Assembly: GCA_039621445.1 (NCBI GenBank)
Contig: CP154954.1
Span: 49,579,847-49,643,846 of the forward strand
Reading direction: 5' to 3'
Length of the DNA stretch: 64,000 nt
Origin: Euglena gracilis
Lineage: Eukaryota
The first letter of the stretch is position 1, and each line of letters begins with the position of its first letter. This document shows positions 7,901 to 60,773 of the stretch, piece after piece. The notes under the pieces were generated by a model that worked only from the letters and a program-made list of their open reading frames with translations, searched no databases and had not been told where the DNA came from. The translations under genes and the position numbers were made by a program.

Positions 7901-10900
7901 GACTGGATCAAAATGTGAACAGCAGTTTCAACCGAAATTGCAGCGGTGTGACGCTTGGCTTTCAGTTGTTGGGAGAGGGGGAGGGGACAGGTGGAAAACA
8001 ACAGGGCAGGGATGGGATGCAGTAGCCTGAGAAACAATATTGGTTGAAACCCATGTTCAGCAGCATTTTGCACGCAGAAATATAGGGGGTGATAGCTTCG
8101 GAACCAGTCGTACACCTGCAGTGCGGTATTGTGTCTCTTCCCTCCCCCACGTACATAACATCCCTGATACCCTCAAAACTCCCCTGGTGTATTTATGGGG
8201 AGGTCCAATAAAGGCAAAATCCCCTGGACTGGTCACCAGCGGCCTTGGACGGGTCACTGGAGGCCAAAAAAAGTGCGATTGGGAGGGAGGGTGTTACTTA
8301 ATTGGGGTGGCATTTATGTCGGGAGTGGTTCCATATCTATTAAAATATGCTGTGTGGTACAGTGTCATGTGGTGTGAGGAAGCTGGACGATGCAAACTTA
8401 AAAACAGGAGGGGCTCGTTGCTGGGTTTTGCAATGCGAGTACCCCTGGGCCAAGGTGCTGGACACCGGCCTGCGGCAGGCCTTCTATGAGCTGTCCCATC
8501 CAGGCTGAATTTTGAAGGTGAGGCCGACCCCGCTCCGGGAGGGGGGGTAATGCCTGGCTGCCAGACACTCAAAGGCCCTCCGACATCCCCCTCTGCCGGG
8601 GGTTGGACATACTCAGCCTAGTCCCATCCAGACCAGCAGCTGCACTCTTATGTCCTGAACAATGCCCACACAGGCGCTTTGGTTGGCTCTGAAGGGGGAG
8701 GGTTGCACCGGTTATTGCTTAAGGGTTCGCAGTGCCCCGGGGGGGGGGGGGGCTGAATTCAGGGGGGAGAAAATTGCACCGTGCAATTTTTGCAGTTTTG
8801 TGCAATTTTCGATTTTCCTGAAATGTGCAATTTTTGGCAATTTTGTGCAATTAATTGCACATGGCCCAGGATATTTTGTTTTGGAAAATGTCAGTTTTTG
8901 ATGCCTTTGAGAGCTTACCGGTTTTTTTTTTTTTTTTGTAACTGATGTGCGTAGTGAAAATTTCCGTTCAAAGGCTGTTTATTGTTGGTTTACTCAGTGT
9001 GCGAACCCTAACTTGAGTCCCCTGCCCAAGTGTCTTCCAACAGAAAAGGAAAAGGAAAAAGGAAGAAAAAAGGAGTTTTTTTTGGAAAACCGTGCAATAC
9101 GTTTTTTTTGGTTTTCGTGGTGCATGGTCCCTGGCATTCTTGTGAAGTCTGTCCATGCCTCTACACGTCGTCGGGTTTTCAAATTTCTCAAGGCGCAAGG
9201 TCGCCCCCTGACCCTCCCCCCCAAAGTAGGGGGCACCCGCTGGAACTCTTGCAGGGTTTTCCCCCTCAAGAAAAGGACCCTGTTACTGTGCAGGGACGCT
9301 TTTAAATGGTGGTGTGAGCATCTTTTGGAAATGAAAAATTTTTTAGCATCGGAAGTACAGCGCATGACACGTTGCGTCTTCCGCTGGATGATGAAAAAAT
9401 TCAGGATGTCCACTATGATGCTGTTCAATGGTGACATTGATGGCCGCTTTGTTTGACCGCGGCGGACTGCTGCCCAACAGGCTTCACCTGTTTTGCTGTG
9501 CCGCGCTGTCATTTTTGGATGTTCTTGACAAAGGAACAAGATGAGTCTCCAAGTAGGTGCATGTGTGCATGCTCGTTACAAGGGATCCAATGCAATCTCC
9601 AAGTATGTGCAATTTTGTGCAATTTTGTGCAATTTTGTGCACTTTTGTGCAATTTTTTTTGCACTGCAATTTTTGACCTTCCGATGTGCAATTTCTCCCC
9701 CCCCCCTGCTGAACTGCAGCTAGTCCAAATCTGCCCAGTGGGAATTCCAGTGGACTCCCCGGCGGGGGTCCGCCAGCAGGGCTAGCTAGTGGAAAGATTG
9801 AAAAAGATTGAATTTTTTTTCAAAACTTGCCAAAAATGGCCATATTTGGCCATGTTTGGGATTTTTTTTTGGAACATTTAAAACCTGATGTCCACCTCGG
9901 CACACAGCGCCGAAAATTTTTTTCCAGTCAGGGGGGACCCCCGGACACCGGCATTAAGTGAGCGTTGGTTTTGTACAGAGGGGTCCCTCCTCCCTCGGAG
10001 TAAGAGGCGGGGTCCAACCCCCCCCCCTCAGGCCCCCTCATTTTCTTCTTGCTCCAAGAAAACATCCAAGGCTGGGGTCGAGTGGAATACCAAAGCAAAT
10101 AGAAATAAGGGAACAGTGAGAGGACACATCCATTTTGATTGTGTGATCAGTTCTGAGTCGGACGTTCACAACGCTGGAGAGCCTTTGTGACCTGGTCAGG
10201 GCCCAGATCCCGAAGTACGAGCTCGACCAGCTGTTTTTGGCGAAGGATGAGATCGCCAAAACCCTGAAAACCGAGCTGGAGCATGAAATGAATCAGTTTG
10301 GCTACACGATCGTGCAGACCCTCATCACGGACATAGACCCTGCTCCGCTTTATGCTTGAAACCACAACCTCATCAGCTCATCGTCTATGCTTTGGAAATT
10401 CTGTCGGTGTGAGTTGATTTCCACCATCGTCATAAAGCGCTCGTTTAGAGAAAACAAAAGCAAACAAACGCATACGCACATATCCAACCTCCGCATGTGA
10501 CCAAGTGTGCCCGAGTCAACCTGTGCTTTTGCTGCGAAAGCGCATTAAAAAACTCCTCCAAAAGGGAAGCACTGTTTCTTTTGATTTGACTTTAACATGC
10601 CACGTTGACGTCGTGTACTGTGGCATTTTTTTTTCTTTTTCAATCTGGCAAGCGATTTCCAGAATACCAAGCATGCTTCAGAATCAGACGCAACGGTGAA
10701 GCGTGCTGGACAGGCTTCTTCAAAGCAGTCTCCTCTCCTCCAACTTAGCAACAAACTGTTACCGGCTGACAGGGATAAGATCAGACAGACCGCAGGAGAG
10801 TTCGACAGACCTGTCCTATATGGTGGCCAGATGTTTCTTTTAAAGGCTGGCGACCCGTGGGCTAAGTTACCCCCCCCCCCCCCACCAGAATGCTGTAGTT

Positions 10901-13779
10901 ACCCCATAGCACAAGGCACATTAGTTTGGTTCAAAAGGGGTGTTGTTATCATAGAGGGGGGGAAGGGGGGTTTCCAGAAAAAAAAGAAAGATGAGTTGGG
11001 GGATGGCCACAGGCCCCCTCTCCCCACCACCCAGGGTATTAAGTGAGCGTTGGTTTTGTCCAGGATGGAAGGGGTCAAACTATTGGGGTCCATATCCCCC
11101 TTTCCCCTTTCAGACCAAGGGTGAGGGGGTGTCCGGGACCGACCCAGAAACCAAAATTATTTTTCTTTGGCACTTCGTGCCGGTGAAGATGAAATTTTGA
11201 GTGTACGGTTGGCCGATACTTTTTTCAGCAAAAAAGTGCGCGAGAACGCCACTTTTGGGCCTGTTTGTCAAGGGCCGAATTATTCCGGTGCATTCCACTA
11301 AAAAATTTTTGCCCAGGGGAAGTGGGGTCCGACCCTCCCCTCCAGGGGGAGGGAGAGGGGTCCAGACCACCCCGCCTCCCCTCCTCTCTGCCACTTAAAT
11401 ACCCTGCCCCCACCGTCCGTCACCCCCCCCCCCTGTGCTGGCCCGGAGGGCATGGAATTCGAGACTGTGGTCACTGCTGCAATGTGCGAAAACGTTGTAC
11501 ACAGAACTTCCCAATTTTTTCCTGTTGCCATCTTGCCTATGTTGATTACTCTCTGGGAAACTGCAGCAAAAACAATAAAACCTTCTTTCAAATATTGTTC
11601 ACAAATTACGTGATCTGACGCTCCATGAAGACTCTTCCAGGTTACCAAAAGCCGTTATTTATAACTCATTGTTGGCCTGGATGCAAAGCAAACTTGAGTG
11701 CAAGGACTCCATAGATTGTCAAATGAAGCCTGGGGCTATGAATGACATCAACGCTGCCCAGCGATTGCGTGTCGCCTTCATACTTCCTTTCCTCTGTTCG
11801 TTGCCGAGTCGGCTACTTGAATTTTTCCAACATTTCTGAATCTTGCAGCAGTTTCCAAAATCGTTCAGTTACGACTCTGCCCTGTCTCTGTCAGTGAAAG
11901 GCAGTATGGCAACGGCTCATGACAAGGCGGAGGCGGAGAAGTTGGCAATTGTCAAAGCAGCTGAGGCGGATGCCGAGAGCAAACGGCTCTCTAAGGGAGA
12001 GGGCCAAGGGATGGCAACACTATCCTCTACATCAGCAGAATAGTGGAAGTGCAGTGGAATTGGGGCCTCTTTCCTGTTTTCCCGAACAACCCCCCCCCCC
12101 CGAAGAGCTTCCCCCGCCTACCATGATCCAAGGTGGCCACTTATTTTAAGGAAGCTTCCCATATCGTGGCCGAAGTTTATTCAAATTTGCATGATTCTGA
12201 AAAGAGTTTTACATGTTCTTTCGTATTCCCAGGAAACCGTTTTGTGCTGTTTCTTATGTTTACACTCCCCTGAACCTATGAAAAGAATTTTTAAGATTTA
12301 CAAAGTGCAAAGTTGTGTCCACAAGTCCACACTTTGTGCTGCTCTTGTATCAAAAGGTCCTCCCCCTCGTTGGGCGTTGGCCTGGCCGAGCAACGCAAGG
12401 CGATCATTATGGGCCTCCATGACTCCATTCGAATGTTCACAGCCCGACAGAGGTACCCCACAGACGTTACCCCTTCATTTACAGGACAGCTGTGTGTCCT
12501 TTGTGTTTTTCTTCGTAGTTGAGGAGATGCCTCTCCCCCACACCAACATCACGCAGTCGGAGGTGATGGAGCTGCTCCTCATGAATCAGTACTTCGACAC
12601 CCTGAAGGAGATGACCGCTTCCTCTCACGCGAAGACGATCTTTGTTCCCCACGACCCGGTCGCAGGCCGGGCCATCCCCTGGAGTTGTGTGATACCGTTG
12701 CTGGTCCGTTGCTCACTCCAAAAGGGTTGGACAGGGTGGTGCATGAACCCCCACCCCAAGGCAAAGCATCTAATTGAGAGCATGCATCCATTTGAGGGCC
12801 CCTGGGGATTGCTGGGCTTGGGTTAGAATTCGGGCTGCCTTGCTAATTCCCTCCGGGGGCTACCCCCGGGCTGTGCGGGCTGGGCTGTACCAATGGGACA
12901 ATTGCCAAAAAAAATCACTTGCAGAACACAGCTTTGAAAAGAAAATGAGCGTCTGGCGAATCCCCAAAACCCCCTGAAAACCCCTCAAAAAAACTTTTTT
13001 TTTAACCATTTTCGACCATTTCCCCATGGTTTCACGCAAAAGGGGGCTGGATGTTGGGCTGGTGGTACCCCGGAGGGAGGTGCTATGCGGCTGGACCGGG
13101 CTAAAATCGACCTCTGGGGTCTGCAAAACCTTAAAGAGCCAATGACCCATACCTTTTAATGAGGTGCCAGCACCGATGGCATTGGTAGCCCAGCAAAGAT
13201 TCATTCTTCAAATGAACTTCAGATGAAGGGCTTTTCTCTGAAATGCGAATTCCCTCCACTAAAACGACGCGCCAGAGAGAGAAACAGAAAACGGATACAG
13301 AAAACCTCGCACTGTCCCCCAAACGCCCCAGATGGCATTACAGCATTTTTCGCACCGAATATTGCTTATGCCGTATCCTGGGGTGTTTGCTGGCGATGGG
13401 CTTTTTTAGCCTTCCCAAACGAGGGCATTTTCGTTTATTTCATTTCGTCGAAAAAGTGCTCAAACACAGTCAAAATTGGTGAAATGAAATGAGCGTTTTT
13501 CTCCTTTCATGGTTTCCTTGCATATTTTTTTGACTGAAATTTCAGTCCAGCTGCATTTGGATGATTTCCTTTTGGGCTGTAGCCCGGTCAAGCCTGGCAG
13601 TCACCTGGCCTCCTCCCCGCCGTCCTCCGCTGTGCTAACTGTATTCCCCATCCTTCAATTTGCGGGAAAAACAGCCTGACACATCACACCACATGTGGTG
13701 GCTCGCCCTCGCCCAGGGCATCGGGCAGCAGATACGACAGGGTTTGCTGGAGGCTGGTCAAAGCTTTAAAATGGACTGA
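1919..13779 (+). CDS. SPFH/band-7 (stomatin/prohibitin) domain protein, HIR-like; 11 exons: 1919-2114, 5094-5114, 8453-8497, 8626-~8654, ~10186-10341, 10687-10707, 11738-11775, 11914-11991, 12372-12445, 12540-12658, 13717-13779 (840 nt, 279 aa)
   Basis: Joined exons read MGCVYCVEQSEVAIVESWGK...ETKTADNVFVTVHCSIQAEVLDTGLRQAFYELSHPDQQLHSYV(C/L)DLVRAQIPKYELDQLFLAKDEIAK...[43 protein letters not shown]...AESKRLSGVGLAEQRKAII...LLMNQYFDTLKEM...IFVPHDPGIGQQIRQGLLEAG. This is colinear over the full length with plant HIR proteins as I recall them. Junctions 1 and 4 are uncertain by a few nt. Confidence 0.92.
2730..2801 (+). pseudogene. Degenerate tRNA-like sequence (pseudo-tRNA or tRNA-derived SINE head) in SPFH intron 1
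   Basis: A-box-like AGCTCAGTGG and a T arm gtggg-TTCGAGC-cccac at tRNA spacing; acceptor and anticodon arms are imperfect. Confidence 0.55.
3175..4589. mobile_element. Non-autonomous TIR element in SPFH intron 1 carrying a PHD-finger fragment; possible TTA TSD
   Basis: TIR cggattttagcaggggcaccgttacaatgaaacgg / ccgtttcattgtaacggcgcccctgctaagttccg, flanked by tta on both sides; internal VRCEVCSVWWHWKCVDL...WMCEGC (~4171-4278). Confidence 0.75.
6227..6400. mobile_element. Small MITE-like element
   Basis: Ends atC(n)gatcttg / caagatcG(n)at are inverted repeats; internal ggacaagatc units. Confidence 0.55.
8760..9708 (+). mobile_element. hAT-family deletion derivative inside SPFH intron 4
   Basis: TIR caggggggagaaaattgcac / gtgcaatttctccccccccc(c)tg; subterminal tgtgcaattt arrays; imperfect flanking repeat gctgaatt/gctgaact; internal ORF fragment PPKVGGTRWNS contains the hAT transposase TRWNS motif. 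Confidence 0.75.
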
Positions 13780-16605: not shown

Positions 16606-16950
<345 letters not shown>

Positions 16951-17174: not shown

Positions 17175-20282
<3,108 letters not shown>

Positions 20283-35922: not shown

Positions 35923-38900
35923 TCACTGCCAACCTCGACCCTGAAATTGCTGCGGGTACGCGGTGAGGGCAACCAAGGCGGAAATGAAGATGCCTGTTGA
36001 AAGCACGGGCTCAAGAGTGCCGTGAAGAGACGAAAGGCCCCCCTCGTCCTCACAACGGTGCATATGTTTGGGTGCCGTGCCGCAACCGGTCTTTCTGGTG
36101 CTGAGACCCTCCCCCAGGCTTTGAAGCAAAGACATTATTTCTGTCTGGCAGCGTGTTGTGAAGCTGAAAGGTAATAATTATTTGGCTTGGGGGGGGGATG
36201 CGCAGCCTCCAAACGATTTGTTTCCATTGTCAGTCAAATTTCAGAGGGTCACCACCAACCGTTGGCGCGGCCACCGCCACCCTTGCGCGTTGTACAGGAA
36301 CCGGGGCAGCCAGCCGCGGAAGAGGCGGCGCACTCCCCCGCGCTGCCTGAGCCCCCGGAACGCGACGACGACCCGCTCCGCCATCCCCAGCAGGCCATAC
36401 GCCCGGGCGCGCCCGGGATAGGGCGTGTCCTACCGGGAAGGGAGGGGGAGGCGGCATCGCCAAGGTTGCATGGGAAGCCCCGACGGGAGATGCTCCGGGA
36501 GGGGCCAGGGAGAGCCAGGACCTGAAGCCATGTGCTTCGGGAGAAAATGCGTCGACATGGACAGGAAGAAAATTCGGGCATCAAAAAAAAAGGTCGGTTT
36601 CTGCAAAAAGGCAAGCATAATTGTAAAAAAGGTCGGGGTCATGTTGAAGCACGTTTAGGCCATTCTTTCTAAATTGGAAAAATATTTGCGAAATAATTAA
36701 CCCCGACCCCCCTGGCCTCCAACTGGGATTTTGGGTGCCCTATTAATTAATCAGGGGGTGGTTTGCTAATTGGGGGAGGTTTGGGGTTTTTCTTAAGAAA
36801 TTAAAAGGTTCTTTAAAAATTGATCACGGGGTCATGTGCTCCGCATTGTTGTACTTGGGGCTCATCATTTGGGGGGTTACATGGCGTTCCACTTTCTTCT
36901 GAAAACATTGTTCCACAACTCTAACTTTTTTCGATCCAGCAGCAGTCCTTTGCGCTCATTTGTCGACATAAACCCACACCTAGGAGAAGGGGGTCCCCAC
37001 CCACCCAGACTGGCATTGGACCCCAAGGACCTGAGGACCCCAAAAAACTGCGCCATCTGAGGGAGTTTCCCAAAAATTTTCTGGCGCGGGGGCTGTGGCC
37101 CCAGACCCCCCCATGGGGAGTCTTCTGAGTTGACGCGGCACTGCACACCACTTGCGCCGGCGGCTCTGTCAGCAACTCGGAGGCCACGGTGTCGGACGGC
37201 GCAGAGGGGAGGCTTGCCAGCCCCGCGCACAGCGACGCCCACGCGATGAGCTGCGCCACGATGGGCACCGGGCTGTGGACGAAGATGGGGACCGCGACAG
37301 GCGGGGCCCCACTCGCGCTGACGGAGGGGAGGGGTGGGGTTCGGGCTGGGGGCCCCGCCTGGCCCCAGTCCTCGAAGTGGTGGAAGAGGGCAGCGCTCCA
37401 CAGCAGCGTCTGCAGATCCCTGGGGCAGGCGTGGGGTTGGACTCCGGTTCGCCCGCAGGGGGTTTCCCTGCCCACTTGGGGGGTTGGCTGGGGGCATGTG
37501 CGCAAACATAATTTTTTGAAAGTTGCCATACCTGGCTCCCAAAACTTGAATACTTTTATTATGGTGTGGTTTGGTGCCTGAACCCAAAATGGAAATCAGG
37601 ACTTTGATGATGATGAGAACGGCCCAGACAAGGGGTCTCTGCATACGCGGCACACATGTGTGTTCGGGTACCAGCCAATGGTGCCTCATCAACACATTGC
37701 GGGAACGATTTTGGGCAGGCGAGGCTGAACCCCACAGCAAACCCCCCACTTGAATTGTTGAAAACTTGTTGGTCCATTTTGCACTGTGTGGCATTGCACA
37801 ATCACACAAACGGACTAATAAGCTGCACGAATGGACCCCTTGCAATTGTGCGAAGTGGATCCCCTACAATGCTGGGACCGGCCGTCACCAGGGGGAATTG
37901 TTTAAGGTGCCTGAAAAAAACTTAAAAAGTGCCTTAAATTATTTGGCCGAAATGCCTGAAAAACCTTCAAAATCCTTTAATCCTTAAAAAAAACCTTAAA
38001 AATCATTCTAAATTTTTTCGAAATTTGAGAAAAAATGAAGTCGCATGGAACATTCTCTATCCACCCAAACTCGAAAAAGTGGCAACTGCCTTTAATTTTG
38101 GACCCTGTACGATGCCGGGATGGCCTTTCCCTCCTTGGAAAATAGACGCCATAAAAATTAAAAACCTTAATTTTCTTAAGCCTTCAAAAATATAATGCTC
38201 CCTGGTCACCACCAGTTTAAAAACCTCGTCCCCGGGAGGGAAAAAAGTGGGAAAACTGTGGTGTTGAGCACGGCGACAGAAATATGGCCTAAATGCAAAA
38301 TTTGGCCACCTGAACGCTCAAACACAGCGGCCGTGAGCTGTGAGCCCTCCCCAACGCCCCGGTTTGCACTGCACAGGGGAGGGCACCGGAACGCGACGGC
38401 GAGCCAGCCCACCGCCAGCTGCCAGTTCTGGCGGCGGAACATGGTGCGGACGGCCCGCAGAGAGACGCTGCGGCTGAGGACCCCTGCCTGGCGGCGCCGG
38501 CACCACACATCTGTTTAAGGACCCCGGGGGTAGGGGGGGGGGGGCTGGGGTTTTGGGCGGGCGGTGTGGCCAGCCCCCCCCCCCCCCCGCTGGAGTGGGG
38601 GAAGGCTGGATCCTGGCTGAACTGAGCTGCGACAGGCGGGGCCGGAATCAGAGAATTGTCCAAAAAAATGACCGCCAAAACAAGCTTTGAAAAAAAATGA
38701 GCGTATGACAATCCCCAAATCCCCTCCCGAAAAAGACCAGAACACCATTTTTTGGCCATTTTCAAAACACTTTCGGCTGGAGCATCCGGGGGGGGGGGGA
38801 GGGCTCCGCCGGGGGGGCCGGGCCCAAAACGGGGCTGGAAGCAGCAGCCCCCCCCCCCCCCCGGGGGTCTGCAAAACCTTAAAGACATGTATGGCTGGCA

Positions 38901-41052: not shown

Positions 41053-43379
41053 GGTCAGGGCTACCAGGGGTTCAACATTAGGGCAGGCCTTTGGGGGAGA
41101 GGTCCTGGGTACCCCCACCAGTGCCCCCACAAGGACCCCCCACCAGTCCGGACCCAGGGGGGGTCTGGACTGGTGGGGGGTCCGGAGCCCCCCTGTGGTC
41201 AAGCAGGGGGGGGGGATGATCTGCGGCTGATCTGCAACCTCCTGATGTCAACTGTTGGCCTGCACCAAAGGCAGGGATTCGCAATGAGGCCAGGAGGTTT
41301 AATTGTTCTCCGGCCCTTTGAAGAGCGGTTGGATGGTCACAAATTCTCAGCCTTGGAACTGAAATGTGACGAAAGCAGGTAAACCCCCAGAAATAACCCA
41401 AGTTTCTGGAACCATCTTTTTCACCTCCCCCCCCCCTGCCAGGTTATTTGGGCCATGTTGCCATGAAGGGGGTTTGCCTTAAAAATGGGGGTGCCAAATT
41501 ACCACCTTTTTGGCTTGGGGGCTTAGGGGCAAGGGCCCTCCAGGTTTTTTTGGGGGGGGGTTAATATGGGTCGAAAATTGACTGCGCAGTTCAAAATTTT
41601 GTTTTTGGAACTCATGTCGTTGCATAACTAGCTATTCTTGGGCTAGTAATTTGGCTCTTTTGGCTTTTGGGGTATTTTTTTTTGCCGTTTGGCGTCACGT
41701 CCAGCTGGGAGACCCCCAGCCCCGGAAGAGGGGGAGGGTCAGCCAGCAGCCTGTTTTCCCGCCAGCCCAAAAGCTGTTTTCCTGCCACGGAGCTGACCCG
41801 GAGGCGACGCCCGGGTGGGGTCACCCCGGGGTCACACGGGGGTCACACCCGGGTCATTTGGGGTCGGCAGCCGCCATCGCGTCGTGCATTCACCGCCGCC
41901 TGGCTCTCCGCAGCTCCCGGAGGGCCAGCGGACAGCCACGGGGGGCCAGCGCCGTCCGCCGCAGCCGCCCCACCCCCGGCGAGGCGGAGGGGCCCGACAC
42001 GGAGGCGGAAGACCAGGCCCGTGGCACTGCTCGCGTTGGATGCGTCGATTTTTCCCGGCTGTGGTGGAAAGTTGCTTTTCAAAGTCATCTTTTTTCCCAC
42101 AAGAAAACAGCCTCGAAGCAGGGGGAGATACGCAAGTTGCACAACCCAAACCAGAAACCCAAATCTTGAGAATTTGCATTTTTTGCCTGAGTTTGTGTTT
42201 TTTCATAATGAAAATTTGACAATAAGTCATATCTGTGCATTTTTGTGTATTTTGCCTTACTGGTTTTTTCCCGGGCAATCTCAGTCATGTTCCTCAACCG
42301 TCAGACAACTGGAAGTTGCATTTCTCACATTTTGGACCAATTTGACATTGACAGGAGTTGCACAATTAAATGCAAGGGCTGAAACTGGGCAAATCAACCA
42401 TGCCAAGTTCGCAAGTTTGCAACCCAGGGGAGCTCCCAAAAGGAATGTTAATGCAGCTTTTGTTTTGCATTTTTTATAGTTCTTTGCATTTTTTTGCATT
42501 TTTTTTGCATTGCATATTTTGACGGGCTTTGTTGCATAATCCCCACCTGCTCGAAGTTTACCATCCCACAACCCCTTTCTGTGACCACTGGTGTTGTGCT
42601 GCCACCCCTAACTCCCTCGCCATGTGGTCGCCATGCGGCTCTGCGTCGTTGCGTTGACGTCTTATAATTGAATTCTTCCTCGGCGTTTGTCCGCTGGGTC
42701 GGTTGTCGGGCAGAAACACCACCGCAAACCACCTGCTCGGGAAACGTATTTCACTCCTGTCCCGTTCCCGGGCGTACTGGGCCCCTACGGCCCAGCCCGG
42801 GGAAGGTCACTGAGGGGGACTCAGGAGCGGGGTTCTCGGCGGCAACCCACGGCCCGCCCCTCTCCTTCTCCCGCAGGCGAGGGAGGGCCCCGGCGCGCTG
42901 CCCGATGAGGGGTTCCCGGCGGACCTGCCCCAGCCCCAGGTGTGTCCCGGGGTGACTCAGCCGCGCCTTAAACACCCCGGGCAGGGCTGTACCCCCCCCC
43001 TGTCGCGGACACACATCCCACCCCCGTGTCACCGGCATTTTCCTGGAACAATGGTGTGTCAACGACAAGGGGGGAGGTATGGGAATCCCTGCAACCCTAT
43101 GGGTGGTGGGTGGTGGGGGGGGGGTCGACCACCCCCACCCACATTCCGGTGGTGAGGGAGGGGTTCGACCAACCCCCCCAGGCCTTCCCATATTTCTGGG
43201 CGCCGATTTTTAGGTCAAAAAATTCATTCGGCGTCGAAGGATTTTTCTTTGAGCGGGTGCCATAGTGGGTGGAGGGGGTCGACCACCCCCCACCAGGCCT
43301 TCCCGTACCGCCCTGGTCCCCGGAGGGGGTCCTTGGGATGGGGGGGCCCCCTTCGCGCACTGCCAGACCCCCAACAGGA

Positions 43380-46300
43380 AACGAACCCCCGCTGGCAGAG
43401 TGCCACCGCTCCCCCGATCAACGCCCACCCTTCGCTGCAGTTGACGGATGCGGACGGCAAAGTCGTGCCTGAGGTGTGCCTGAGGTGTGAGTGTGCGATG
43501 GCGGCTGGTATGCCTTCGGTTCCGCAGGCACACCAAGGCTGTTCAGGAACCCCCAAATCCCATCCCATGGGTGGGGGGGCCCAACCCCCACCCACCCCTT
43601 CCTCTTCCTGGAGGCGCCGACTTTTGGGTTAAAATCTGCCTTCGGCGCCAAAGTTTATTCCTTGCGATGTGCTGTGGCAGAAGGGTCAAACCCCACCTCG
43701 GGTGGGGTGGGGGGCCTCAACCCCCCACCAGGCCTTTGGGGAAGGGGGGCATGGACGCATCGGGATGCAAGTTGCATCCCCTGAAGCACCCAGCAGGCGG
43801 GGGGGGGGGGGGCACGCCTCCCTGAGAGAACGGGGTGGGCTGCTTGTCGCCGGGGGAGGGATGGGGTCGTTCCGCTGCGGCCGCCCCCCCTCCCCCCCCC
43901 CACCCCTCCCCCTGCCCAGGAACGGTCCAACTATCCGCTGTGGGCGTTTCGCAATGTGATGGGCCTCCTCGGCCTTCCCCAGGCCAGAGCCTTCCCAGCC
44001 TCCCCCTCCCATCTCTGTGGTCAGCGGGATCTCCCAAAGCGGAGGGCAGTTGGGTTCAGTCCGGGTAGCAGTCTGGTGTAAAGCCCCACAACTCGGGGGA
44101 ATGTGGTTGAGAAAAGCAATGCAGGGTTCAAGTTGTTCCCAGAATTGCGTCCCAACCCCCCAACACTGAATGCTGCTTCGACCGGGTTCATGTTCCAGTC
44201 TTCTCTTCCAGGCCCTGGTTGGTTCATGCTCGTGAGCAGCCAACTGAACCACCCACCCTCCTCCTCCTGGCCTCATTGCGAATCCCTGCCTTTGGTGCAG
44301 GCCAACAGTTGACATCAGGAGGTTGCAGATCAGCCGCAGATCATCCCCCCCCCCTGCTTGACCACAGGGGGGCTCCGGACCCCCCACCAGTCCAGACCCC
44401 CCCTGGGTCCGGACTGGTGGGGGGTCCTTGTGGGGGCACTGGTGGGGGTACCCAGGACCTCTCCCCCAAAGGCCTGCCCTAATGTTGAACCCCTGGTAGC
44501 CCTGACCTGATGCCGCCACGGCGGTGAACACCCTGGTGTACAACACCCTTCCCGACCTGCTGGTGGCCGTCCTCGCCTCCTCCGCCTACGCTGTGCTGCT
44601 CCATCCGCTGGACACGTACAAGACGCGGCTGCAGCTGGAGCAGCCGGGGATCAACTCGCAGGGGGTTCTCGGTGTGTGGCGGCGAGGTGTCAGCCGAGGA
44701 ACACAACTGCCGTCTTTTTAAATAAGAACAAGTCAAACGTTTTTCAACTTTTTCCCGCATTTGCTCTTTTGGCATGGTTTGTGTTTATTTTGTCAGTTTT
44801 TGAATTTGTCTGACATATTATTTTGGCGAAGAAAGCACTACATTTTTGGACAATGTTTTTCCCAGCGTAAAGTATGTTTTGTAAGTTTTGGCCCTTTTTT
44901 TCAATTTTCGGACAAATTACACATTTTAAGAATCGAGCGTTCCAACTTGTTTTTGTTACACAGTTGTTTTTGTATTTTTAGTCTTTTTGCCCCCGCATTT
45001 TTTGAGTCATATTTTCCAGGCTCCGTGTTGCATCCCCCTCATGTTGCCAGCAAAGGAAACCCGCACGCAGTGTGCGACCCGCATCGGCCCTTCCGTTAGA
45101 GTCTGGTGTTTTTTTCAGGAGAGCAAAGCAGGTGCTTTTGAAGAGATTTGTCTGGTGGGTAAGTTTGGACAACTTACCCGCCGGAAATTCTCCAATTGTG
45201 GAGAATGGTTCCCGGACGGTTCTCCGCGGGACATGGAACACCGTGGACCCAGGGACGGAACAAACCCTCTCACCCTCACCCCCAGCCGCCGCCTCAGCCG
45301 CCAGCACCTCCCGGGCCACTCCGGGCCACCCCCACAGCCGGGTCCCATCTCAGGCTGGACCACCCCCCCCCCCCCCCGCCGGCCCCCTGTCCCCCCCAGG
45401 GCTGTACAGCGGCCTGGGCTGGGGCGTGCTCAAGGAGGGCGTCGCCCGGGCGCTGTGGATGAGCGCGTTCATCGCGTTCAGCTCCGCCCCCTTCCAGCTG
45501 ATGAACCCGGCCGGCACGCTGCTGGCTGGTCCGCACCCCCGGCCCCCCCCCGCCGTCCCCCCGGTGGCACGACCCCGGTGGCACGACCCCGGTGGGTTTC
45601 CCGGCGGGCTTCCTCGCCGGGCTCGCGGTGCCTTCGGGTTGATTCGAGTGCGGCTCAAACCCCTGCATCCCAGCATCCACCGTGCGGGAGTTTGTTTCGC
45701 CCAGAATCCACCTCAGGGCAGTTTCACTCCCCCACCCAATGGCCTCTCCTCGCCCAGCCCCCCGGTATTAAGTGAGTGCTCATTTTGTTCAGGAGAGAGG
45801 AATGGGGTGGTTCGATCACCCCCCCCCTAGGGTTGGGGGTGAGGACCACCCAGGGACCCCCTGTGGAACCAAAAGGTTTTCTTTCTCGGCGCTTTGCACC
45901 AAAAACTTATGTTTTTATCATCTGTTTTATTTTGGCATTTTGATGAAAAATATCGAAGTATTGCAAACATTGGCGTCCCCACCAGCAAATTCCCCCCACA
46001 CCCCCACACCCCCCTCACTGACGCGCATGGCCCCATTTTTCCAAGGGAAATGCCCCCCCATCCAGACCCCCCCTTCCCCCCGCCCCCCAAATGAAAGTCA
46101 AAAGGCCGATTTCGGGCTTTCCTGTGTAAAGAATCTTTTCGGATTACAAGTGACCCCAACATCGCAAGAACATTTCAGACCTATTCCGAAAATGCAAAAG
46201 GGAACAGGGTTATTTATTTTCAAGTTTACCCCACACCCCCCATTAAGGCCAGTTGGGACGCCAATTTTTGCAATATATGAAAATATCACCTGAAAATGCA

Positions 46301-49004
46301 ATTTTGGGCATTCATTAATGCCCTTCAAAAATATTTCTGGCGCTTTTGCGCCGGGTTTTTTCCCGGGGGTCGATCCCTACCCTCTCAGAGGGCGAGCAGG
46401 GTCCAGGGCACCCCCCCCCACTTTACACCTGCCCCCTCCCGCCACCAGCCACCCCCCCATGGTGAATGAATCCTGCTGTTTCTCAGCATATGTTTCCTGG
46501 CTCACTGTGTCTATTGTGCTTCTCACCCGGGAGGGGAAGGTTGGCATCTTTCCATCCCCAGTGAGTGGACTGGTCCCTCCTTCCCCTTTCCCCTCCCCCG
46601 CCCCAGGGTCGATGGCGGTGCTCATCAGCTCCTTCCTTCGCATCCCCTTCGAGCTGATGTGCCAGCCATACATGTCTTTAAGGTTTTGCAGACCCCCGGG
46701 GGGGGGGGGGCTGCTGCTTCCAGCCCCGATTTTGGCCCAGCCCCACCGCCGCAGCCCTCCCCCCCCCCCCGGATGCTCCAGCCGAAAGTGTTTTGAAAAT
46801 GGCCAAAAAATGGTGTTCTGGTCTTTTTCGGGAGGGGATTTGGGGATTGTCATACGCTCATTTTTTTTCAAAGCTTGTTTTGGCGGTCATTTTTTTGGAC
46901 AATTCTCTGATTCCGGCCCCGCCTGTCGCAGCTCAGTTCAGCCAGGATCCAGCCTTCCCCCACTCCAGCGGGGGGGGGGGGGGCTGGCCAGCCAGCCCGC
47001 CCAAATCTCCAGCCCCCCCCCCTACCCCCGGGGTCCTTAAACAGATGTGTGGTGCCGGCGCCGCCAGGCAGGGGTCCTCAGCCGCAGCGTCTCTCTGCGG
47101 GCCGTCCGCACCATGTTCCGCCGCCAGAACTGGCAGCTGGCGGTGGGCTGGCTCGCCGTCGCGTTCCGGTGCCCTCCCCTGTGCAGTGCAAACCGGGGCG
47201 TTGGGGAGGGCTCACAGCTCACGGCCGCTGTGTTTGAGCGTTCAGGTGGCCAAATTTTGCATTTAGGCCATATTTCTGTCGCCGTGCTCAACACCACAGT
47301 TTTCCCACTTTTTTCCCTCCCGGGGACGAGGTTTTTAAACTGGTGGTGACCAGGGAGCATTATATTTTTGAAGGCTTAAGAAAATTAAGGTTTTTAATTT
47401 TTATGGCGTCTATTTTCCAAGGAGGGAAAGGCCATCCCGGCATCGTACAGGGTCCAAAATTAAAGGCAGTTGCCACTTTTTCGAGTTTGGGTGGATAGAG
47501 AATGTTCCATGCGACTTCATTTTTTCTCAAATTTCGAAAAAATTTAGAATGATTTTTAAGGTTTTTTTTAAGGATTAAAGGATTTTGAAGGTTTTTCAGG
47601 CATTTCGGCCAAATAATTTAAGGCACTTTTTAAGTTTTTTTCAGGCACCTTAAACAATTCCCCCTGGTGACGGCCGGTCCCAGCATTGTAGGGGATCCAC
47701 TTCGCACAATTGCAAGGGGTCCATTCGTGCAGCTTATTAGTCCGTTTGTGTGATTGTGCAATGCCACACAGTGCAAAATGGACCAACAAGTTTTCAACAA
47801 TTCAAGTGGGGGGTTTGCTGTGGGGTTCAGCCTCGCCTGCCCAAAATCGTTCCCGCAATGTGTTGATGAGGCACCATTGGCTGGTACCCGAACACACATG
47901 TGTGCCGCGTATGCAGAGACCCCTTGTCTGGGCCGTTCTCATCATCATCAAAGTCCTGATTTCCATTTTGGGTTCAGGCACCAAACCACACCATAATAAA
48001 AGTATTCAAGTTTTGGGAGCCAGGTATGGCAACTTTCAAAAAATTATGTTTGCGCACATGCCCCCAGCCAACCCCCCAAGTGGGCAGGGAAACCCCCTGC
48101 GGGCGAACCGGAGTCCAACCCCACGCCTGCCCCAGGGATCTGCAGACGCTGCTGTGGAGCGCTGCCCTCTTCCACCACTTCGAGGACTGGGGCCAGGCGG
48201 GGCCCCCAGCCCGAACCCCACCCCTCCCCTCCGTCAGCGCGAGTGGGGCCCCGCCTGTCGCGGTCCCCATCTTCGTCCACAGCCCGGTGCCCATCGTGGC
48301 GCAGCTCATCGCGTGGGCGTCGCTGTGCGCGGGGCTGGCAAGCCTCCCCTCTGCGCCGTCCGACACCGTGGCCTCCGAGTTGCTGACAGAGCCGCCGGCG
48401 CAAGTGGTGTGCAGTGCCGCGTCAACTCAGAAGACTCCCCATGGGGGGGTCTGGGGCCACAGCCCCCGCGCCAGAAAATTTTTGGGAAACTCCCTCAGAT
48501 GGCGCAGTTTTTTGGGGTCCTCAGGTCCTTGGGGTCCAATGCCAGTCTGGGTGGGTGGGGACCCCCTTCTCCTAGGTGTGGGTTTATGTCGACAAATGAG
48601 CGCAAAGGACTGCTGCTGGATCGAAAAAAGTTAGAGTTGTGGAACAATGTTTTCAGAAGAAAGTGGAACGCCATGTAACCCCCCAAATGATGAGCCCCAA
48701 GTACAACAATGCGGAGCACATGACCCCGTGATCAATTTTTAAAGAACCTTTTAATTTCTTAAGAAAAACCCCAAACCTCCCCCAATTAGCAAACCACCCC
48801 CTGATTAATTAATAGGGCACCCAAAATCCCAGTTGGAGGCCAGGGGGGTCGGGGTTAATTATTTCGCAAATATTTTTCCAATTTAGAAAGAATGGCCTAA
48901 ACGTGCTTCAACATGACCCCGACCTTTTTTACAATTATGCTTGCCTTTTTGCAGAAACCGACCTTTTTTTTGACCCATTCCATTGACCCATTCCATTGAC
49001 TTTT

Positions 49005-49035
<31 letters not shown>

Positions 49036-50930
49036 CATGTTTGTGCTTGTTGGTGCCTGTGTGCCTGTATGTGTTCATCTGTATGTCCATGTGTGAGGTG
49101 TGGCGTAAACTCTCAGGGAGTCAAACTCCCCCCCAAATATAAGAAACCCGTTTCTTATATTTGGGTGTCGGCCCAAAGGGTTTCTTATATTTGGGGGTTT
49201 CTTATGTTTGGGTGTCGACGGCAGGCCCCAAGGATGGAACTTTTTCTTCTTTCGTTCCCTTCGTGTAATTAATTACCTGTGACCGCCGTGTGTAGAATTT
49301 TCTTCATGTCTGACGGCGCCTCTTCCGAGGCCCTGGAAAGTGTTTATGCTGAATCGGTTCATTCCATCCGTCCAGAAGAAAGTGCCAGTGGTATTCCTGA
49401 ATCTGGGAGTGATGTCGTTGAAAAAAAGATTCGCAAGAAATATAACGTGAATTTCAAATTCAAAGTTATCCATGCAGCCAGTATAAGCACCATTGGGCAA
49501 GCATCTAAGCAAAGTGGGATTCCAAAAGGGATGATCAATATTTGAGAGGTTTCTTATATATGGATTAGCATCCAACAGCCCAGGGGTTTCTTATATTCGC
49601 GGGTTTCTTATATTTGGGAGTCGGCTGAAAATTGACCCAAAGGGTTTCTTATATTTGGGGGTTTCTTGAGCGAGGGGCTTCTTATGTTTGGGGGGGGGGG
49701 GTATATTCAGGGGCTTCTTATATTCAGTGGGTAGGCAAAGTTACGCAAACACATGTGCCACGAGCATGTGAACCTCCATTGGAACTTGTTCAATTGCATT
49801 CACCATGAAAACTCCTTTTGAGCTGACCTGGGTGAATGTCGGCAGCAGAAAAGTCATTTTTGATGTTTTGTTTGGAAGGTTTTTTTGTTGTGTTTGTGTT
49901 TGTGTTTTGTTTCTCAAAAAATTGAAGGAGAATATTTTGTAGAAAAATTATTATTCCTTATTTCGCAGTTTAAACCCACAATGGGAACAAAGATTACGAC
50001 GAACAAAATACAGCCTTGCAACGAATATCTCTGAAAAAATAATGCAGGTGTATTTTTGATGGAAATGATTTTGTTGAGATTTGGGCTTGCAGTTTCCCCC
50101 CAAATTTAAAAAAAATGGAAAAGTGATTAGTTCCAGTGTTGTTGTTTTTTTGCATAGGCACCGATTCTTCATCCAGTAAATTTAGTTGGGAAATTTCGAA
50201 ATTTGGACGAGGGTGGACGGAGCCAATGCGCCAGGCATTCTGCCTTGTGCATCGCAGGTGTCGGAAATTTGATGCCCGAATTTTCTTCCTGTCCATGTCG
50301 ACGCATTTTCTCCCGAAGCACATGGCTTCAGGTCCTGGCTCTCCCTGGCCCCTCCCGGAGCATCTCCCGTCGGGGCTTCCCATGCAACCTTGGCGATGCC
50401 GCCTCCCCCTCCCTTCCCGGTAGGACACGCCCTATCCCGGGCGCGCCCGGGCGTATGGCCTGCTGGGGATGGCGGAGCGGGTCGTCGTCGCGTTCCGGGG
50501 GCTCAGGCAGCGCGGGGGAGTGCGCCGCCTCTTCCGCGGCTGGCTGCCCCGGTTCCTGTACAACGCGCAAGGGTGGCGGTGGCCGCGCCAACGGTTGGTG
50601 GTGACCCTCTGAAATTTGACTGACAATGGAAACAAATCGTTTGGAGGCTGCGCATCCCCCCCCCAAGCCAAATAATTATTACCTTTCAGCTTCACAACAC
50701 GCTGCCAGACAGAAATAATGTCTTTGCTTCAAAGCCTGGGGGAGGGTCTCAGCACCAGAAAGACCGGTTGCGGCACGGCACCCAAACATATGCACCGTTG
50801 TGAGGACGAGGGGGGCCTTTCGTCTCTTCACGGCACTCTTGAGCCCGTGCTTTCAACAGGCATCTTCATTTCCGCCTTGGTTGCCCTCACCGCGTACCCG
50901 CAGCAATTTCAGGGTCGAGGTTGGCAGTGA
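43380..50930 (+). CDS. Mitochondrial carrier family (SLC25/MCF) protein; exons ~43380-43469 (putative), 44508-44686, 45400-45528, 46607-46663, 47057-47168, 48136-~48403, 50424-50564, 50847-50930; start codon not located, further 5' exons probably in the spacer
   Basis: Carrier signature HPLDTYKTRLQ...GVWRRGLYSGLG; repeat 2 IPFELMCRRRQ; repeat 3 APSDTVASEL...RGGVRRLFRGWLPRFLYNVLSTGIF. Four GT-AG introns (44687-45399, 45529-46606, 47169-48135, ~48404-50423) and two clear stem-type introns. Confidence 0.85.
48974..50272. mobile_element. ~1.3-kb insertion present only in the right arm, with 5-bp duplication TTTGA
   Basis: Left-arm empty site at ~36575-36595 reads (rc) acctttttttttgatgcccgaa; the right arm has tttga at 48969-48973 and 50268-50272; insert begins with (CCCATTCCATTGA)2. 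Confidence 0.8.
49103..49746 (+). mobile_element. pogo/Tigger-like deletion derivative nested in the right-arm insertion
   Basis: Subterminal GGGTTTCTTATATT arrays in inverted arrangement; ends gcgtaa/ttacgc; truncated ORF 49279-49545 ends RKKYNVNFKFKVIHAASISTIGQASKQSGIPKGMI, resembling the N-terminal HTH (Brinker/psq-type) of pogo transposases. Confidence 0.6.
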
Positions 50931-53900
50931 CAGCATGTACATTAAGCTTTGTGAACGTTTGTCGGTACGGAATGATTGCATTGATTGAATCGCTTGCACT
51001 TCATCCAAGTTGGATCAGTGTTTGTGCATCATTTTTTTCATCGTTGCCTCAAAAATGGGAGTTTTCTCACAAAAATAATTTTTAGCCACCTGCCCACCCG
51101 CGGCGCTTGGCCCTTAAAAAAGCTCAGAAAGCTAGAAGGTGCAATTTCTGACTCTTTTTTTTTTAAGCTAGGAACACAGAGATTTTTTCCCCTTGAAAAG
51201 GTAAGAATGCAAAACAATTAAATTTTGTTGTGTTTTAAACTCATGCGAAAAACTCCACATCATCGTACCCCCTCGGACCATACGCACCGGAGCGGAACAA
51301 TGCTGCGACTTCTGGGTTTGGGGTCCGTGGGTTCCATGGGGGCCAATTTCACCCATCTCTCGCTTTCTGCTTTAAATTTTTGAAAAGTTCGCAAAATGCC
51401 GGTTCAACAAAAAAGCCCAAATTCCCAATGCGCACTCTAAAAAAAAGATGGCCACCACTAATTTTGCAAAAATGTGAGGAAACCTAAAACAGACTCCAAA
51501 AATACTTTTAACACCAAAAAAAATGTCCGGCCAGAAACTTCCCGACACTAAAAGAGCTCTTCCAGGTGCTCTCGGTATTTCCCGGAAAGCCAAGAGCAGG
51601 ACAAGAGGGACTGATGTTTCGAAGCACAAAGGCAAGGTGGGTATTGAGTAAGGAGGGCCAAGCGGCTGGAGAAACGAAGTTTTTTTTTAATCCAAACACC
51701 GCCCTCCGCCCAAAAACCCCAGGCTGCATAGCGAGCCCCTTCCTAGTCGCTCTTTTTTTACATAAAAAAATGGCTTCTGGGGGTAACTTTCTAAGGTTTT
51801 TCGCAAACGCAGCTTAAAACTGTCCAAAAAGTTTTGGCCGATCCACCAGTGGGGAGCCAAAGACCAAAGTTTCTAAAAGCAACTCGGTACCGATTTGAAA
51901 CTGAAGCAATTTCTATCCTGTCTTTCATTCAGAAACCGCGGCGCAAATTCTGGGGGCTCACTTTTTGGATCCATCCTATCGTACTCCCGCGAGGAAGTTC
52001 CTGCCCTCCCTCCAAAAGGGCCACTGTTGGTCCCTTTTCCTCCTGGGGCTGGGTCTTTGGTGAAAGGGCCACTGTTGGTCCCCTTTCCCCCCTTTTTTGG
52101 CAGAGGGCCTCTGTGGGTCCCCGGGGGATTTCTCCAGCAGCTGTGGGATGATGTCCCTTATCTTCTTGGTGGCCACTGTGGGTCCACCCTGCTGGCTTCC
52201 AAGGTCTCCATGTATAAATTTTCTTCCATAATCCATCTGTTGGTTCCCTGGGCCTTTCTTGGCCTCAAACCCCATTGGAAATCTGTGGGGGCTGCTGTGC
52301 CCCCCCCTTTTCCCCTTGAAAGGGGGCATTGTGTCAGATGAATTCGGGGGTTGGACAGACCTTTTCTGCCCCTTCCTGAGGGGCTTTGCTTGTAAAACTG
52401 GCCCCCGTGGCCCCTGTAGTGGTGACCACCTTGGCCTTGATTACATCTCCCCATCCAATTTGTGTATAGGCGACTGGGCGCCTTTGGGGGAGATGCCCCT
52501 GATGCGTCGGCTTTGGTTGTCCAATTATGAAACATTTTGGGCCCCCATGGCCCCTCCTTTGCCCATCAAGGGCTGGGGCTGACTTCCATCTTCTTGGTCT
52601 TCTGGCCACAGTGGTCTAAGGACCGTGGCCGTCACTGGGGGGGGGGGGGGGGGGCTGGGAAAATTTATGGGGTGGGGGTCTGGGGGGGAAGAACGGCCAC
52701 GTTTTCCACGTGTTGACCGCATCCCCAAGGGCTCCAGCTGCTGAGGCCACTGCTCCAGGACGTCCGCGGCCAAAAAATTCCAATCTCCATTGCCAATTGG
52801 TATTGGCGTCTTTTCTCGGCTCTTCTTCGTTTGTGAACTCTGTTCCTGTCTTCTTGGTTTCGAAGGGAAAGTTAGGAGTCAGCCAACTCCGGCGAAAAAG
52901 GCACTGAGCAGGGGCTCCTAACCCAGCGCCCCAAAACAATCGCAACAAACCGCCGGCGAGCAGGGCATTGCCTCACAAAGGCAAAGTGCGGAGCCCAAGG
53001 TGTCTGGCGCAATGGCTTTTTTTCCTTGGCACCGAAAATTTTTATTGTCCTGTCGGTGCTACGTTTGGGAAACATTGTCAGTTTTTTTTGTCGCAAATCA
53101 AAGAGACGGAAAATAGCTGAAATTAATTGGCGCAAGCTCCCCCGACACCTTTCCCCATTCCGCCAGCGACAACTCAAGCGTGCGGCAAAAGGTCGGGGAT
53201 GGTCAATATATTTGTGGGGGGGAATGCAAAAAATGCGCAGAACACTGCCAATTGTGCGAAAAAATTGATTTTTTGACCCCCAAACTCCTACCTGACTCAT
53301 TCTTGCCCTCTTTTTGGGCCATTTTTGCCCCCCTCCAAAATCCAACTTTCCGTCGCCGTCTGGCTGTTTTTTTTTTTTAAACCAACCCCGTGCCCTTGAG
53401 TGGGAAGGCAGGCACTACCCCCCCCGGGGGGGTTGGATTTCAGCCTGTGCCCAGGAACTTAAAAGGCAATTTTACTTGAAAATGAGCCTTTTTTGAGTCT
53501 TGCCGGAGTGCCTGCCAGGCACTCTTTTTCGAATGCCCTATGCCCTTAGTTGCACAAGGCTTCTTGTCTGTTTATGGCCGGCGCTAACTACGCGGGTTGG
53601 ATTTTTGTGCCTTGGAGTGCCTGCCCAGGCACCCGACTTAAAAAAAAACAGCCTGGTCACCGTCGCGCCGGCCCAGGGACCCCCCGGGGGGATAGCCCTT
53701 CGGTTTATGCGACGCCCTGGCAAGTTCATATGCACCCCCCTACTGCCGGAGATGTGAAATATGAAACATCAAACACCAAAATGGTCAGCTCGTGCATATC
53801 GTGATTGAATGAAGACTGCTGGAAAGAAAGCAAGGCACCGTTCCACAGGAGAGAAATGGCCAAAAGGATCTCTGAAGCGAGAATTCACAACAGTGCTAAT

Positions 53901-58940: not shown

Positions 58941-60069
58941 GGCCCCGGGCGGATGATTGGCTATGACGATCCTGGAGGTCGTACCGACCATGGTCGGCCC
59001 GACCATTGGTCGGCCCGACCATGGTCGGGCCGACCTAGGTCGGGCCGACCACTGGAGGTCGGGCCGACTAGCCAATGAACCGCATTACCCCCCCCCCCGT
59101 TTTCAAAATTTTCAAAGGAATTTTGACTATAGGTCGGTAAAGGTCGGGCCGACCATGGTCGGCCCGACCTGTTTGTTACCGACCATTATGGTCGGCCCGA
59201 CCATTTGGAGGGCGGGCCGACCATATGGTCGGCAGAAACGACCTCCATGGTTTTCCATTTCAGAAGCATAAAAACCCTTGGCCAAACCCTGCGGAACATA
59301 CAGATGGGCTATTTTACCTACCTGGGTGCACACAAAAGGAGTTTGTTGGGGGGCGCGTTTCGGCCATCCTTGCCATGCACACACAAGGGGATTTTGTTAT
59401 CTTAGCAGGGGGGGTCCGGGGGGGGGGGGCGGCAGCCCCCCCCCCCCCACACCGGAGGAGTCCGTAGGCTGACTAAGTTAACACAAAGGGAGTTTGTTGG
59501 GGGGTGCGTTTTGGCCATCCTTGTCTTGCACACACAAGGGGATTTTGTTATCTTAGCGGGGGGGGTCCGGGGGGGGCGGCAGCCCCCCCCCGGAGGAGGC
59601 CGTAGGCCGACTAAGTTAGCACAAAGGGAGTTTGTTGGGGGGCGCGTTTTTTGGCCATCCTTGCCTTGCACACACAAGGGGATTTTGTTATCTTAGCGGG
59701 GGGGGTCCGGGGGGGGGATTCTCCCCCCTCCGGAGTAAGCCGAAGGCCAACTAGGTTAGCACAAAGGGGGTCCGGGGGGCGCGTTTTTCATTTTTTTTCC
59801 ATATGGGATGTTTTTTGACAGTTTATAGGTGATTCCAATGTGTTTCCATCCTTTTTGAGTCAAATTTGCCGAACCAAATTTTGAGGGGGGGGGGCTTAAA
59901 TTTCCAAAAAAGGGGGGGGTAATGCGGTTGATTGGAGGTCGGGCCGACCTGGTCGGCCCGACCTCCAATGGTCGATAGGCCATAGCCAATGGTCGGCCCG
60001 ACCTAGGTCGGCCCGACCATGGTCGGTACGACCTCCGGGATCGTCATAGCCAATCATCCGCACGGAGCC
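58941..60069. mobile_element. 1129-bp Mutator-like non-autonomous element with ~55-bp TIRs and 9-bp TSD GGCAGTCAA (GTCGGCCCGACC family)
   Basis: ggccccgggcggatgattggctatgacgatcctggaggtcgtaccgaccatgg / ccatggtcggtacgacctccgggatcgtcatagccaatcatccgcacggagcc; TSD at 58932-58940 and 60070-60078; truncated relatives at ~29840-30148 and 30436-31297. Confidence 0.9.
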
Positions 60070-60628: not shown

Positions 60629-60773
60629 TGTGGCGTGACTGGGGCGTGACTGTGGCGTGACTGTGGCGTGACTGTGGTGTGACTGGGGCGTGACTGGGGC
60701 GTGACTGTGGTGTGACTGGGGCGTGACTGGGCGTGACTGGGGCGTGACTGGGGCGTGACTGTGGTGTGACTGG
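60629..60773. repeat. 11-bp minisatellite (GGCGTGACTG[G/T])n within the telomere-like tract, right arm only
   Basis: ~13 units; absent from the mirror position at ~27965. Confidence 0.9.

Follow-up and report, generated by a model that had tools for sequence, protein, structure and literature searches.

The 64,000-nucleotide stretch of Euglena gracilis DNA analysed here (hereafter the window; contig CP154954.1, positions 49,579,847 to 49,643,846, assembly GCA_039621445.1) holds a mitochondrial-carrier gene with a nonconventional intron of 393 nt, which we designated intron A. We consider it probable that intron A is a copy of a small non-autonomous DNA transposon, similar to a MITE (miniature inverted-repeat transposable element), that was inserted in an exon and is spliced via pairing of its terminal inverted repeats (TIRs), and that an older copy lies in an intron of an SPFH/Band-7 gene in the same window. 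An earlier examination of these letters alone (the sequence-only reading) had described a unit of ~0.3–0.4 kb that acts as a spliceable intron in an exon and as a passenger in another intron, and had pointed to an intron-generating transposon family. The coordinates of the features are collected in Table 1.

The gene around intron A was recognized by a Mito_carr (Pfam) match with an E value of 1.5e-4 on a nearby exon-sized open reading frame (ORF) at 44506–44721. The sole protein returned by a search with this exon was P0001 (eukprot:EG_transcript_10036, 463 aa), which is transcript-derived. P0001 was placed by tblastn on the + strand of the window in twelve blocks at 41.9–50.9 kb, nearly all of them 100% identical, and one residue (Asp/Asn) differs between the protein and the exons. 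By this match, the window is identified as nuclear DNA of E. gracilis or of a strain nearly identical to it. Across intron A, the protein reads ...SFLRIPFELMC|RRRQAGVLS..., with the coding of the first part ending at 46663 and that of the second beginning at 47057. Because P0001 joins PFELMC directly to RRRQAG, 393 nt are missing from the mRNA. A script requiring exact translation found six compatible positions for the intron, from 46659–47051 to 46664–47056, each of 393 nt, and the position slides over six places because GTGCC is present on both sides. The end dinucleotides of the six registers are GT..TG, TG..GG, GC..GT, CC..TG, CA..GC and AG..CC, and GT/GC-AG or AT-AC borders were found in none of them. 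Since no compatible register has GT/GC-AG ends, intron A is a true nonconventional intron, in agreement with the sequence-only reading. The mRNA retains CGG (Arg), the right-hand variant of the flanking repeat, and therefore the splice junction falls within GTGCC. An in-frame TAA is located inside the intron at 47038–47040. In the register 46664–47056, both junctions are Y|R (C|A and C|G), CA is found at +4,+5 and TG at -7,-6, and the first base of the downstream exon is a purine. These CA, TG and Y|R positions are given as the most conserved ones of nonconventional introns in excerpts of Milanowski et al. (PMC3935182, Fig. 3 legend) and Guminska et al. (PMC6221363).

Among ten introns of the carrier gene that were solved by the script, four are nonconventional and six have GT/GC-AG borders; an eleventh, 47169–48135, was read by eye as GT..AG. 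The gene also contains a 72-nt nonconventional intron at 48191–48262, with the textbook CAG/CTG motif and a near-perfect stem of 12 nt. This intron is in frame (24 codons, no stop), and its retention would add residues with no truncation. Four data sets were mapped on 43000–62999: a raw RNA run, two sets of contigs that are probably from RNA, and a DNA set. The joint 46663->47057 was not among the 15 joints listed of 607, and the RNA depth on the carrier gene was only 0.2–3 per strand, so that this result neither confirms nor denies the splice. As an internal control, the joint 53827->54533 was seen in three RNA data sets, whereas the DNA set lacked it, and its CA and TG stand at the same offsets as in intron A. 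It delimits an RNA-verified nonconventional intron of 705 nt at 53828–54532 (ends AA..AC, CA at +4,+5, TG at -7,-6), which was observed in 42 raw RNA reads and the two RNA contig sets.

The ends of intron A form an extended TIR, as had been proposed from the letters, with arms of 18 nt (46666–46683 / 47035–47052) that are 83% complementary; in a comparison of the TIRs alone, 14 of 17 positions agree. The outer termini of the element are CATACATG.../...ATGTGTG. Immediately outside of them, the flanks written as GTGCC(A/G)GC in the sequence-only reading were found as the direct repeats GTGCCAGC and GTGCCGGC, which match at seven of eight positions. The length of intron A, 393 nt, equals the TIR-to-TIR element of 385 bp plus exactly 8 nt. 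When 254,027 pseudo-introns of 300–700 nt were taken from the window, a flank match of 7/8 or better in that register was found in 0.11% of them. An element of 385 bp plus 8 nt, with an 8-bp flanking repeat, is built as a small non-autonomous DNA transposon and its target-site duplication (TSD) would be. The predicted minimum free energy and centroid folds both pair 46665–46673 with 47045–47053, and the exon flanks 46659–46663 with 47057–47061. By this predicted terminal pairing, the splice junctions of intron A would be brought together. No coding capacity was detected: the frame-1 translation matched no Pfam family, and searches with the translations of two frames gave 627 candidates, none at E <= 0.01, and matched 0 of 1.84 billion representatives. 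Rfam returned for intron A only sub-threshold look-alikes of G/C hairpins (20–28 bits against gathering scores of 70–105), and nothing for copy C, the homologue described below.

The 22-mer TCTTTAAGGTTTTGCAGACCCC of the 5' subterminal part is located at 46675–46696 (+), 13116–13137 (-) and 38864–38885 (-), and the exact reverse complementarity at 13 kb was the starting observation of the sequence-only reading. Three matches with up to three mismatches exist in the window versus none in 100 dinucleotide shuffles. The similarity reaches far beyond the 22-mer, which had been overlooked. When intron A alone was compared with the window by nhmmer, positions 12–388 of its 393 nt aligned to 13137–12781 with an E value of 2.5e-21; we designated this homologue copy C. 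The local alignment score of the pair was 83, whereas none of 500 dinucleotide shuffles scored above 32; removal of the first 40 nt of intron A, which hold the 22-mer, left the score unchanged. Of 339 aligned columns, 207 are identical (61%), and the 5' subterminal 22-mer, the T-rich core (46854–46905) and the 3' end are the conserved blocks. In the 13-kb region, blastn detected the 22-mer only. The 3' limit of the homology is 47051, the last base before the right 8-bp repeat. The two copies, ~34 kb apart, have no similarity in their flanks. Among the 12 introns that were compared with the window, an independent end-to-end homologue was found for intron A alone.

Copy C lies in a different gene. 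An SPFH/Band_7 exon was detected at 10147–10356 (+) with an E value of 1.6e-8, and the homologues P0002 and P0003 map nine SPFH exon blocks on the + strand at 1919–13776, the last two of which end at 12664 and start at 13720. According to this homology-based exon map, copy C sits inside the last SPFH intron and antisense to the gene, which bears out the proposal that the unit, ~0.37 kb long in the present comparison, recurs there as a passenger. Among 121 ORFs in 8.9–16.5 kb, the only Pfam match above the cut-off was Band_7; CAP_Gly and YxzE were sub-cutoff.

From these results, we infer a course of events that starts with transposition. An element of 385 bp, with imperfect 17-bp TIRs beginning CA...TG, would have inserted into the carrier exon and duplicated 8 bp of the target, GTGCCGGC. 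In the pre-mRNA the TIRs would pair, and the two junctions would be drawn together. The nonconventional splicing system would then cut ~3 nt upstream and ~5 nt downstream of the stem, by which the element and exactly one equivalent of the target duplication (3+5 = 8) would be removed and the reading frame restored. In favour of this course, the spacer lengths established by mutation, 3 nt and 5 (to 6) nt (PMC12501133), likewise sum to 8, and a parallel exists in the eight-nucleotide direct repeats of a recently gained nonconventional intron of E. agilis gapC (PMC4770533). The second, older copy would have been left antisense in the SPFH intron, where its ends may have decayed without selection on them. 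The position of copy C, within an intron of a different gene and antisense, fits an element that was inserted as DNA, and not one that arrived by reverse splicing of RNA. Intact ends in the exon copy and decayed ends in the intron copy are the pattern expected from selection for splicing.

Several points weigh against this explanation. The 5' limit of the homology with copy C is 46675, which is 8 nt inside the TIR and the proposed end of the element. At copy C the outer TIR and a flanking repeat, or TSD, were not recognizable: an inverted-repeat search there was empty, and only TTTAAGG/CCTCAAA is left. Copy B, 96% identical to intron A, is part of the left arm of an inverted duplication and not an independent insertion, because 24734–41297 is an inverted duplicate of 64000–44263 in which the flanks of the element are shared. 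Therefore, the independent copies in the window are two only, intron A and copy C. The exact splice sites of intron A are inferred, not taken from RNA reads. A strict splicing code, 5'-N3-CDG ... CH'G-N5-6|R, has been genetically defined in euglenids, with spacers of 3 nt and 5–6 nt established by mutation, and is given for 61.2% of the E. agilis nonconventional introns in an excerpt of Nomura et al. (2025, PMC12501133). None of the six registers of intron A conforms to it; in the best one the 3/5 spacers and the purine are correct, and the third pair is U.G (CAT/GTG). The 7/8 repeat is a single case: in the same register, five other nonconventional introns of the window scored 2, 4, 4, 4 and 4 of 8 and eight conventional introns 2–5 of 8, and these lower scores carry no information. 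The fold of the whole element is not unusually stable (z -1.25; 13 of 100 shuffles folded equally well). No Pfam match to a transposase was obtained at E <= 0.001 on 37 of the 63 ORFs of at least 130 aa in 1–44300. Finally, no longer element with the same ends exists in the window, where the ends were found only at intron A and copies B and C.

The late start of the 5' homology would also suit a history in which a smaller transposon, bounded by TTAA (~46682–47036), was nested in an older short hairpin intron, whose outer stem (CCATACATG/ATGTGTGG) and GTGCC repeats were pre-existing. TTAA is present at both inner ends of intron A and TTAA/TCAA in copy C, and unambiguous 5' homology between the two begins only at 46675. 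After removal of the inner part, a hairpin would still be formed by the 34 nt left over, and a nonconventional intron of 72 nt does exist in the same gene. However, the 3' homology with copy C runs past TTAA to 47051 (9/16 flanking positions by manual count), the 7/8 repeat abuts the outer TIR and not the inner one, and the sequences adjacent to TTAA make no good TIR together. We regard such nesting as unlikely.

The 8-nt repeat could also be explained as the fill-in of overhangs at a staggered double-strand break in the exon, which was repaired with captured repetitive DNA and no transposase. Break repair of this kind was proposed for an E. agilis gapC intron with 8-nt repeats (Milanowski et al. 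2016, PMC4770533, in excerpt), and no transposase was seen in the ORFs scanned in the present window. On the other hand, captured filler should end arbitrarily, whereas here the termini of the insert form an imperfect inverted repeat of 17 bp and its 3' boundary is also where the homology to copy C stops, and in our judgement break repair is a rather improbable origin of intron A. RNA-mediated copying (reverse splicing of a circular intron followed by reverse transcription) would agree with the release of nonconventional introns as full-length circles (PMC11282704 and PMC12501133, in excerpt), and a local duplication with the distance of only 34 kb in a region with large duplications, but both seem very improbable to us, as copy C runs antisense to the gene that hosts it and reverse splicing leaves no target duplication, and as the flanks of A and C share no similarity and a unit-length homology of 61% identity is unlike a piece of a larger duplicated block.

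We therefore return to the insertion of a MITE-like element, with intron A as a credible transposon-derived nonconventional intron. In the 64 kb, the dispersed copies amount to two independent ones, one segmental duplicate and one doubtful fragment. For a TSD of fixed length there is one copy, intron A, with a 7/8 repeat of 8 bp, and none recognizable at copy C. Intron A is also the only copy in the window that coincides with intron boundaries. The interpretation as an intron-generating transposon family is partly supported, and a wider family is plausible.

The doubtful fragment is a weak candidate for a third, partial 5' terminus at 8719–8751, which was found with the low-complexity filter off. 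A search for its 3' partner end found none, and the sequence pattern used for this type of terminus was written after the site had been seen. The candidate lies ~55 nt inside the SPFH intron 8664–10194, which has nonconventional features (CAC at +4..+6, GTG at -8..-6, a 9-nt stem with 8/9 pairs). Other candidates were rejected. The sites 33496–33606 and 53226–53334, mirrored in both arms of the duplication, matched a profile of the central core with an E value of 0.005, which is too weak, and may be a degraded relative or chance; the profile match at 21102–20988 was likewise too weak to count. Outside the window, the 22-mer and the core pattern gave 0 matches in metagenome contigs, and the 22-mer gave 0 matches in prokaryote genome contigs. 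A Dokdonia metagenome-assembled genome was dismissed as a carrier of the core pattern, with a likeness limited to ~24 nt beside a T-run that indicates a chance match. DNA depth was not accepted as evidence of copy number: the summed depth was 3276 in the bin 46335–47001 versus ~70–110 for single-copy contigs, and G/C-rich neighbours were as high (45001–45667: 3102). Forty-two loose ends behind 46710 come after a G-run.

The inverted duplication, which had been overlooked together with copy B in the sequence-only reading, has arms of ~19.6 kb with ~99% identity in the self-comparison, separated by a spacer of 2.97 kb (41298–44262). The 5' exons of the carrier gene (41.9–44.0 kb) are in the spacer, and the complete gene continues in the right arm only. 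The right boundary is spanned by an independent DNA contig (44212–44684) with 0 differences. In the right arm, 1296 bp at 48972–50267 are missing from the left arm (36584/36585). They lie inside the GT-AG intron 48407–50423, and their junctions show a 5-nt microhomology (TTTGA) and no TIR. This difference resembles a microhomology deletion or insertion, and it shows the two arms to be separate copies of DNA. Between the arms, the identity of the element is 96%, compared with ~99.3% for the surrounding arm segment, and the differences between A and B concentrate in the G/C-rich subterminal part (46697–46760 versus 38800–38866), where either errors in sequencing homopolymers or true divergence may be the cause. 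Another dispersed repeat of ~400 bp with 89% identity, unrelated to the intron element, was found at 1080–1474, upstream of the SPFH gene, and once per arm at 27019–27419 and 61320–61723. Tandem and inverted repeats also form blocks at 16600–16950, 18070–18300 and 18920–19360, in which staggered self-matches of 75–97% identity are numerous.

Table 1. Features of intron A, its homologues and the host genes (positions in the window)
Feature	Positions	Strand	Basis
Intron A, nonconventional, mitochondrial-carrier gene, 393 nt	46664..47056	+	P0001 alignment
Upstream carrier exon (...GSMAVLISSFLRIPFELMC)	46607..46663	+	100% identical to P0001
Downstream carrier exon (RRRQAGVLS...AVAFR)	47057..47168	+	P0001 alignment
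Element proper, TIR to TIR, 385 bp, non-coding, G/C homopolymer hairpins in both arms	46667..47051	+	TIR ends; homology with copy C ends at 47051
5' TIR, CATACATGTCTTTAAGG	46667..46683	+	14/17 identical to reverse complement of 47035-47051
3' TIR (reverse complement, CACACATCTGTTTAAGG)	47035..47051	+	Inverted-repeat comparison
Left 8-bp direct repeat GTGCCAGC, TSD-like; last 3 nt inside intron	46659..46666	+	7/8 match to right repeat
Right 8-bp direct repeat GTGCCGGC; first 5 nt inside intron	47052..47059	+	Variant kept in mRNA (CGG, Arg)
Subterminal 22-mer, exactly shared with copies B and C	46675..46696	+	22-mer search with up to three mismatches
T-rich central core, best-kept internal block between A and C	46854..46905	+	Alignments
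Copy B, 96% identical to A	38499..38896	-	blastn; flanks identical too
Copy C, diverged homologue, antisense in last SPFH intron	12781..13146	-	nhmmer
Last intron of SPFH/Band-7 gene, host of copy C; best model GT..AG, 1058 nt	12659..13716	+	Homologues P0002 and P0003; homology only
Possible third, partial 5' terminus (TTAAGGGTTCGCAG..CCCC + G-run + GCTG), weak	8719..8751	+	blastn 29/33, E 3e-6, low-complexity filter off

A MITE origin of the nonconventional introns of euglenids and diplonemids has been an explicit hypothesis since 2013 (PMC3935182), repeated in PMC6221363, PMC11170887, PMC11282704, PMC12621601 and PMC12501133, and in the excerpts of the 2024 review (PMC11282704) the motifs are labelled TIR and the junction repeats TSD-like. 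Within the portions of the main texts covered by the literature search, no nonconventional intron was reported as matched to a dispersed repeat copy, and neither a 3+5 = 8 relation nor a superfamily assignment was reported. Intron A gives a concrete test case for this old idea of nonconventional introns as former mobile elements, as the locus offers an intron that equals a TIR-bounded unit plus 8 nt, with a flanking duplication and a non-exonic homologue. A complete assembly would make the hypothesis countable, in the number of copies, the fraction co-extensive with introns and the 8-bp duplications. In addition, the knock-in splicing assay that already exists could take intron A as a natural substrate, in either orientation and with the duplication present or absent. 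A broader proposal, which we put forward tentatively and hold to be doubtful, is that the majority of euglenid nonconventional introns arose by insertion of DNA transposons with 8-bp target duplications (hAT/P/Merlin-like MITEs, the ends of which would be CAG...CTG). On this view, the machinery would measure off 3 nt upstream of the TIR stem and 5 nt downstream because cuts at these distances (3+5 = 8) take out the element together with exactly one duplication, in either orientation. This relation fits intron A (385 + 8 nt, 7/8 repeat), the eight-nucleotide repeats in E. agilis gapC and the published 3- and 5-nt spacers. If it were general, the splicing code would be tied to the mechanism of transposition. 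In that case, a single transposon superfamily would have left the published code as its footprint, and the splicing machinery would be a host or transposon-derived system that erases such insertions from RNA.

TSDs of 8 bp are made by the hAT, P and Merlin superfamilies of DNA transposons and their MITEs. The element of intron A shares with these superfamilies the 8-bp duplication and short imperfect TIRs beginning with CA. The terminal consensus of hAT is YARNG; the termini of the element, CATAC/CACAC, do not fit it, whereas the 8-bp repeat does fit hAT. Introners offer a further comparison, and Huff et al. (2016) reportedly described their mechanism as splicing out of the element with one TSD equivalent. 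In excerpts of PMC11282704, on introners and MITE-derived introns of Micromonas, Aureococcus, dinoflagellates and Fritillaria, a non-autonomous element with TIR and TSD in an exon is removed with one TSD equivalent and the frame is restored, as proposed for intron A. Introners are removed by the spliceosome, with splice sites taken partly from the element or the TSD, and exist in hundreds to thousands of near-identical copies, whereas removal of intron A is nonconventional, presumably guided by TIR pairing, and only two diverged copies are documented. Because its borders are non-spliceosomal and only one copy coincides with an intron, we did not file it as an introner; the locus may work like one but is not one by definition.

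The closest system is that of the euglenid nonconventional introns (Tessier/Canaday; Milanowski 2014, 2016; Nomura et al. 2025), with which intron A shares the absence of GT-AG ends, the predicted pairing of the ends, the CA/TG offsets, the Y|R junctions, the downstream purine, a position that slides via direct repeats, and GT-AG introns in the same gene. It departs from the strict code in the third motif pair, which is U.G (CAT/GTG) instead of G-C. Intron 4 of gapC in E. agilis ACOI 323 was recently gained, is nonconventional, and has eight-nucleotide direct repeats, from which its authors infer break repair (PMC4770533, in excerpt). It shares these 8-nt repeats with intron A; the species and the gene are different, and the excerpted text reports no copies related to it (PMC4770533). 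Unlike the euglenid cases in the portions of the literature searched, intron A has a homologous copy that can be identified elsewhere.

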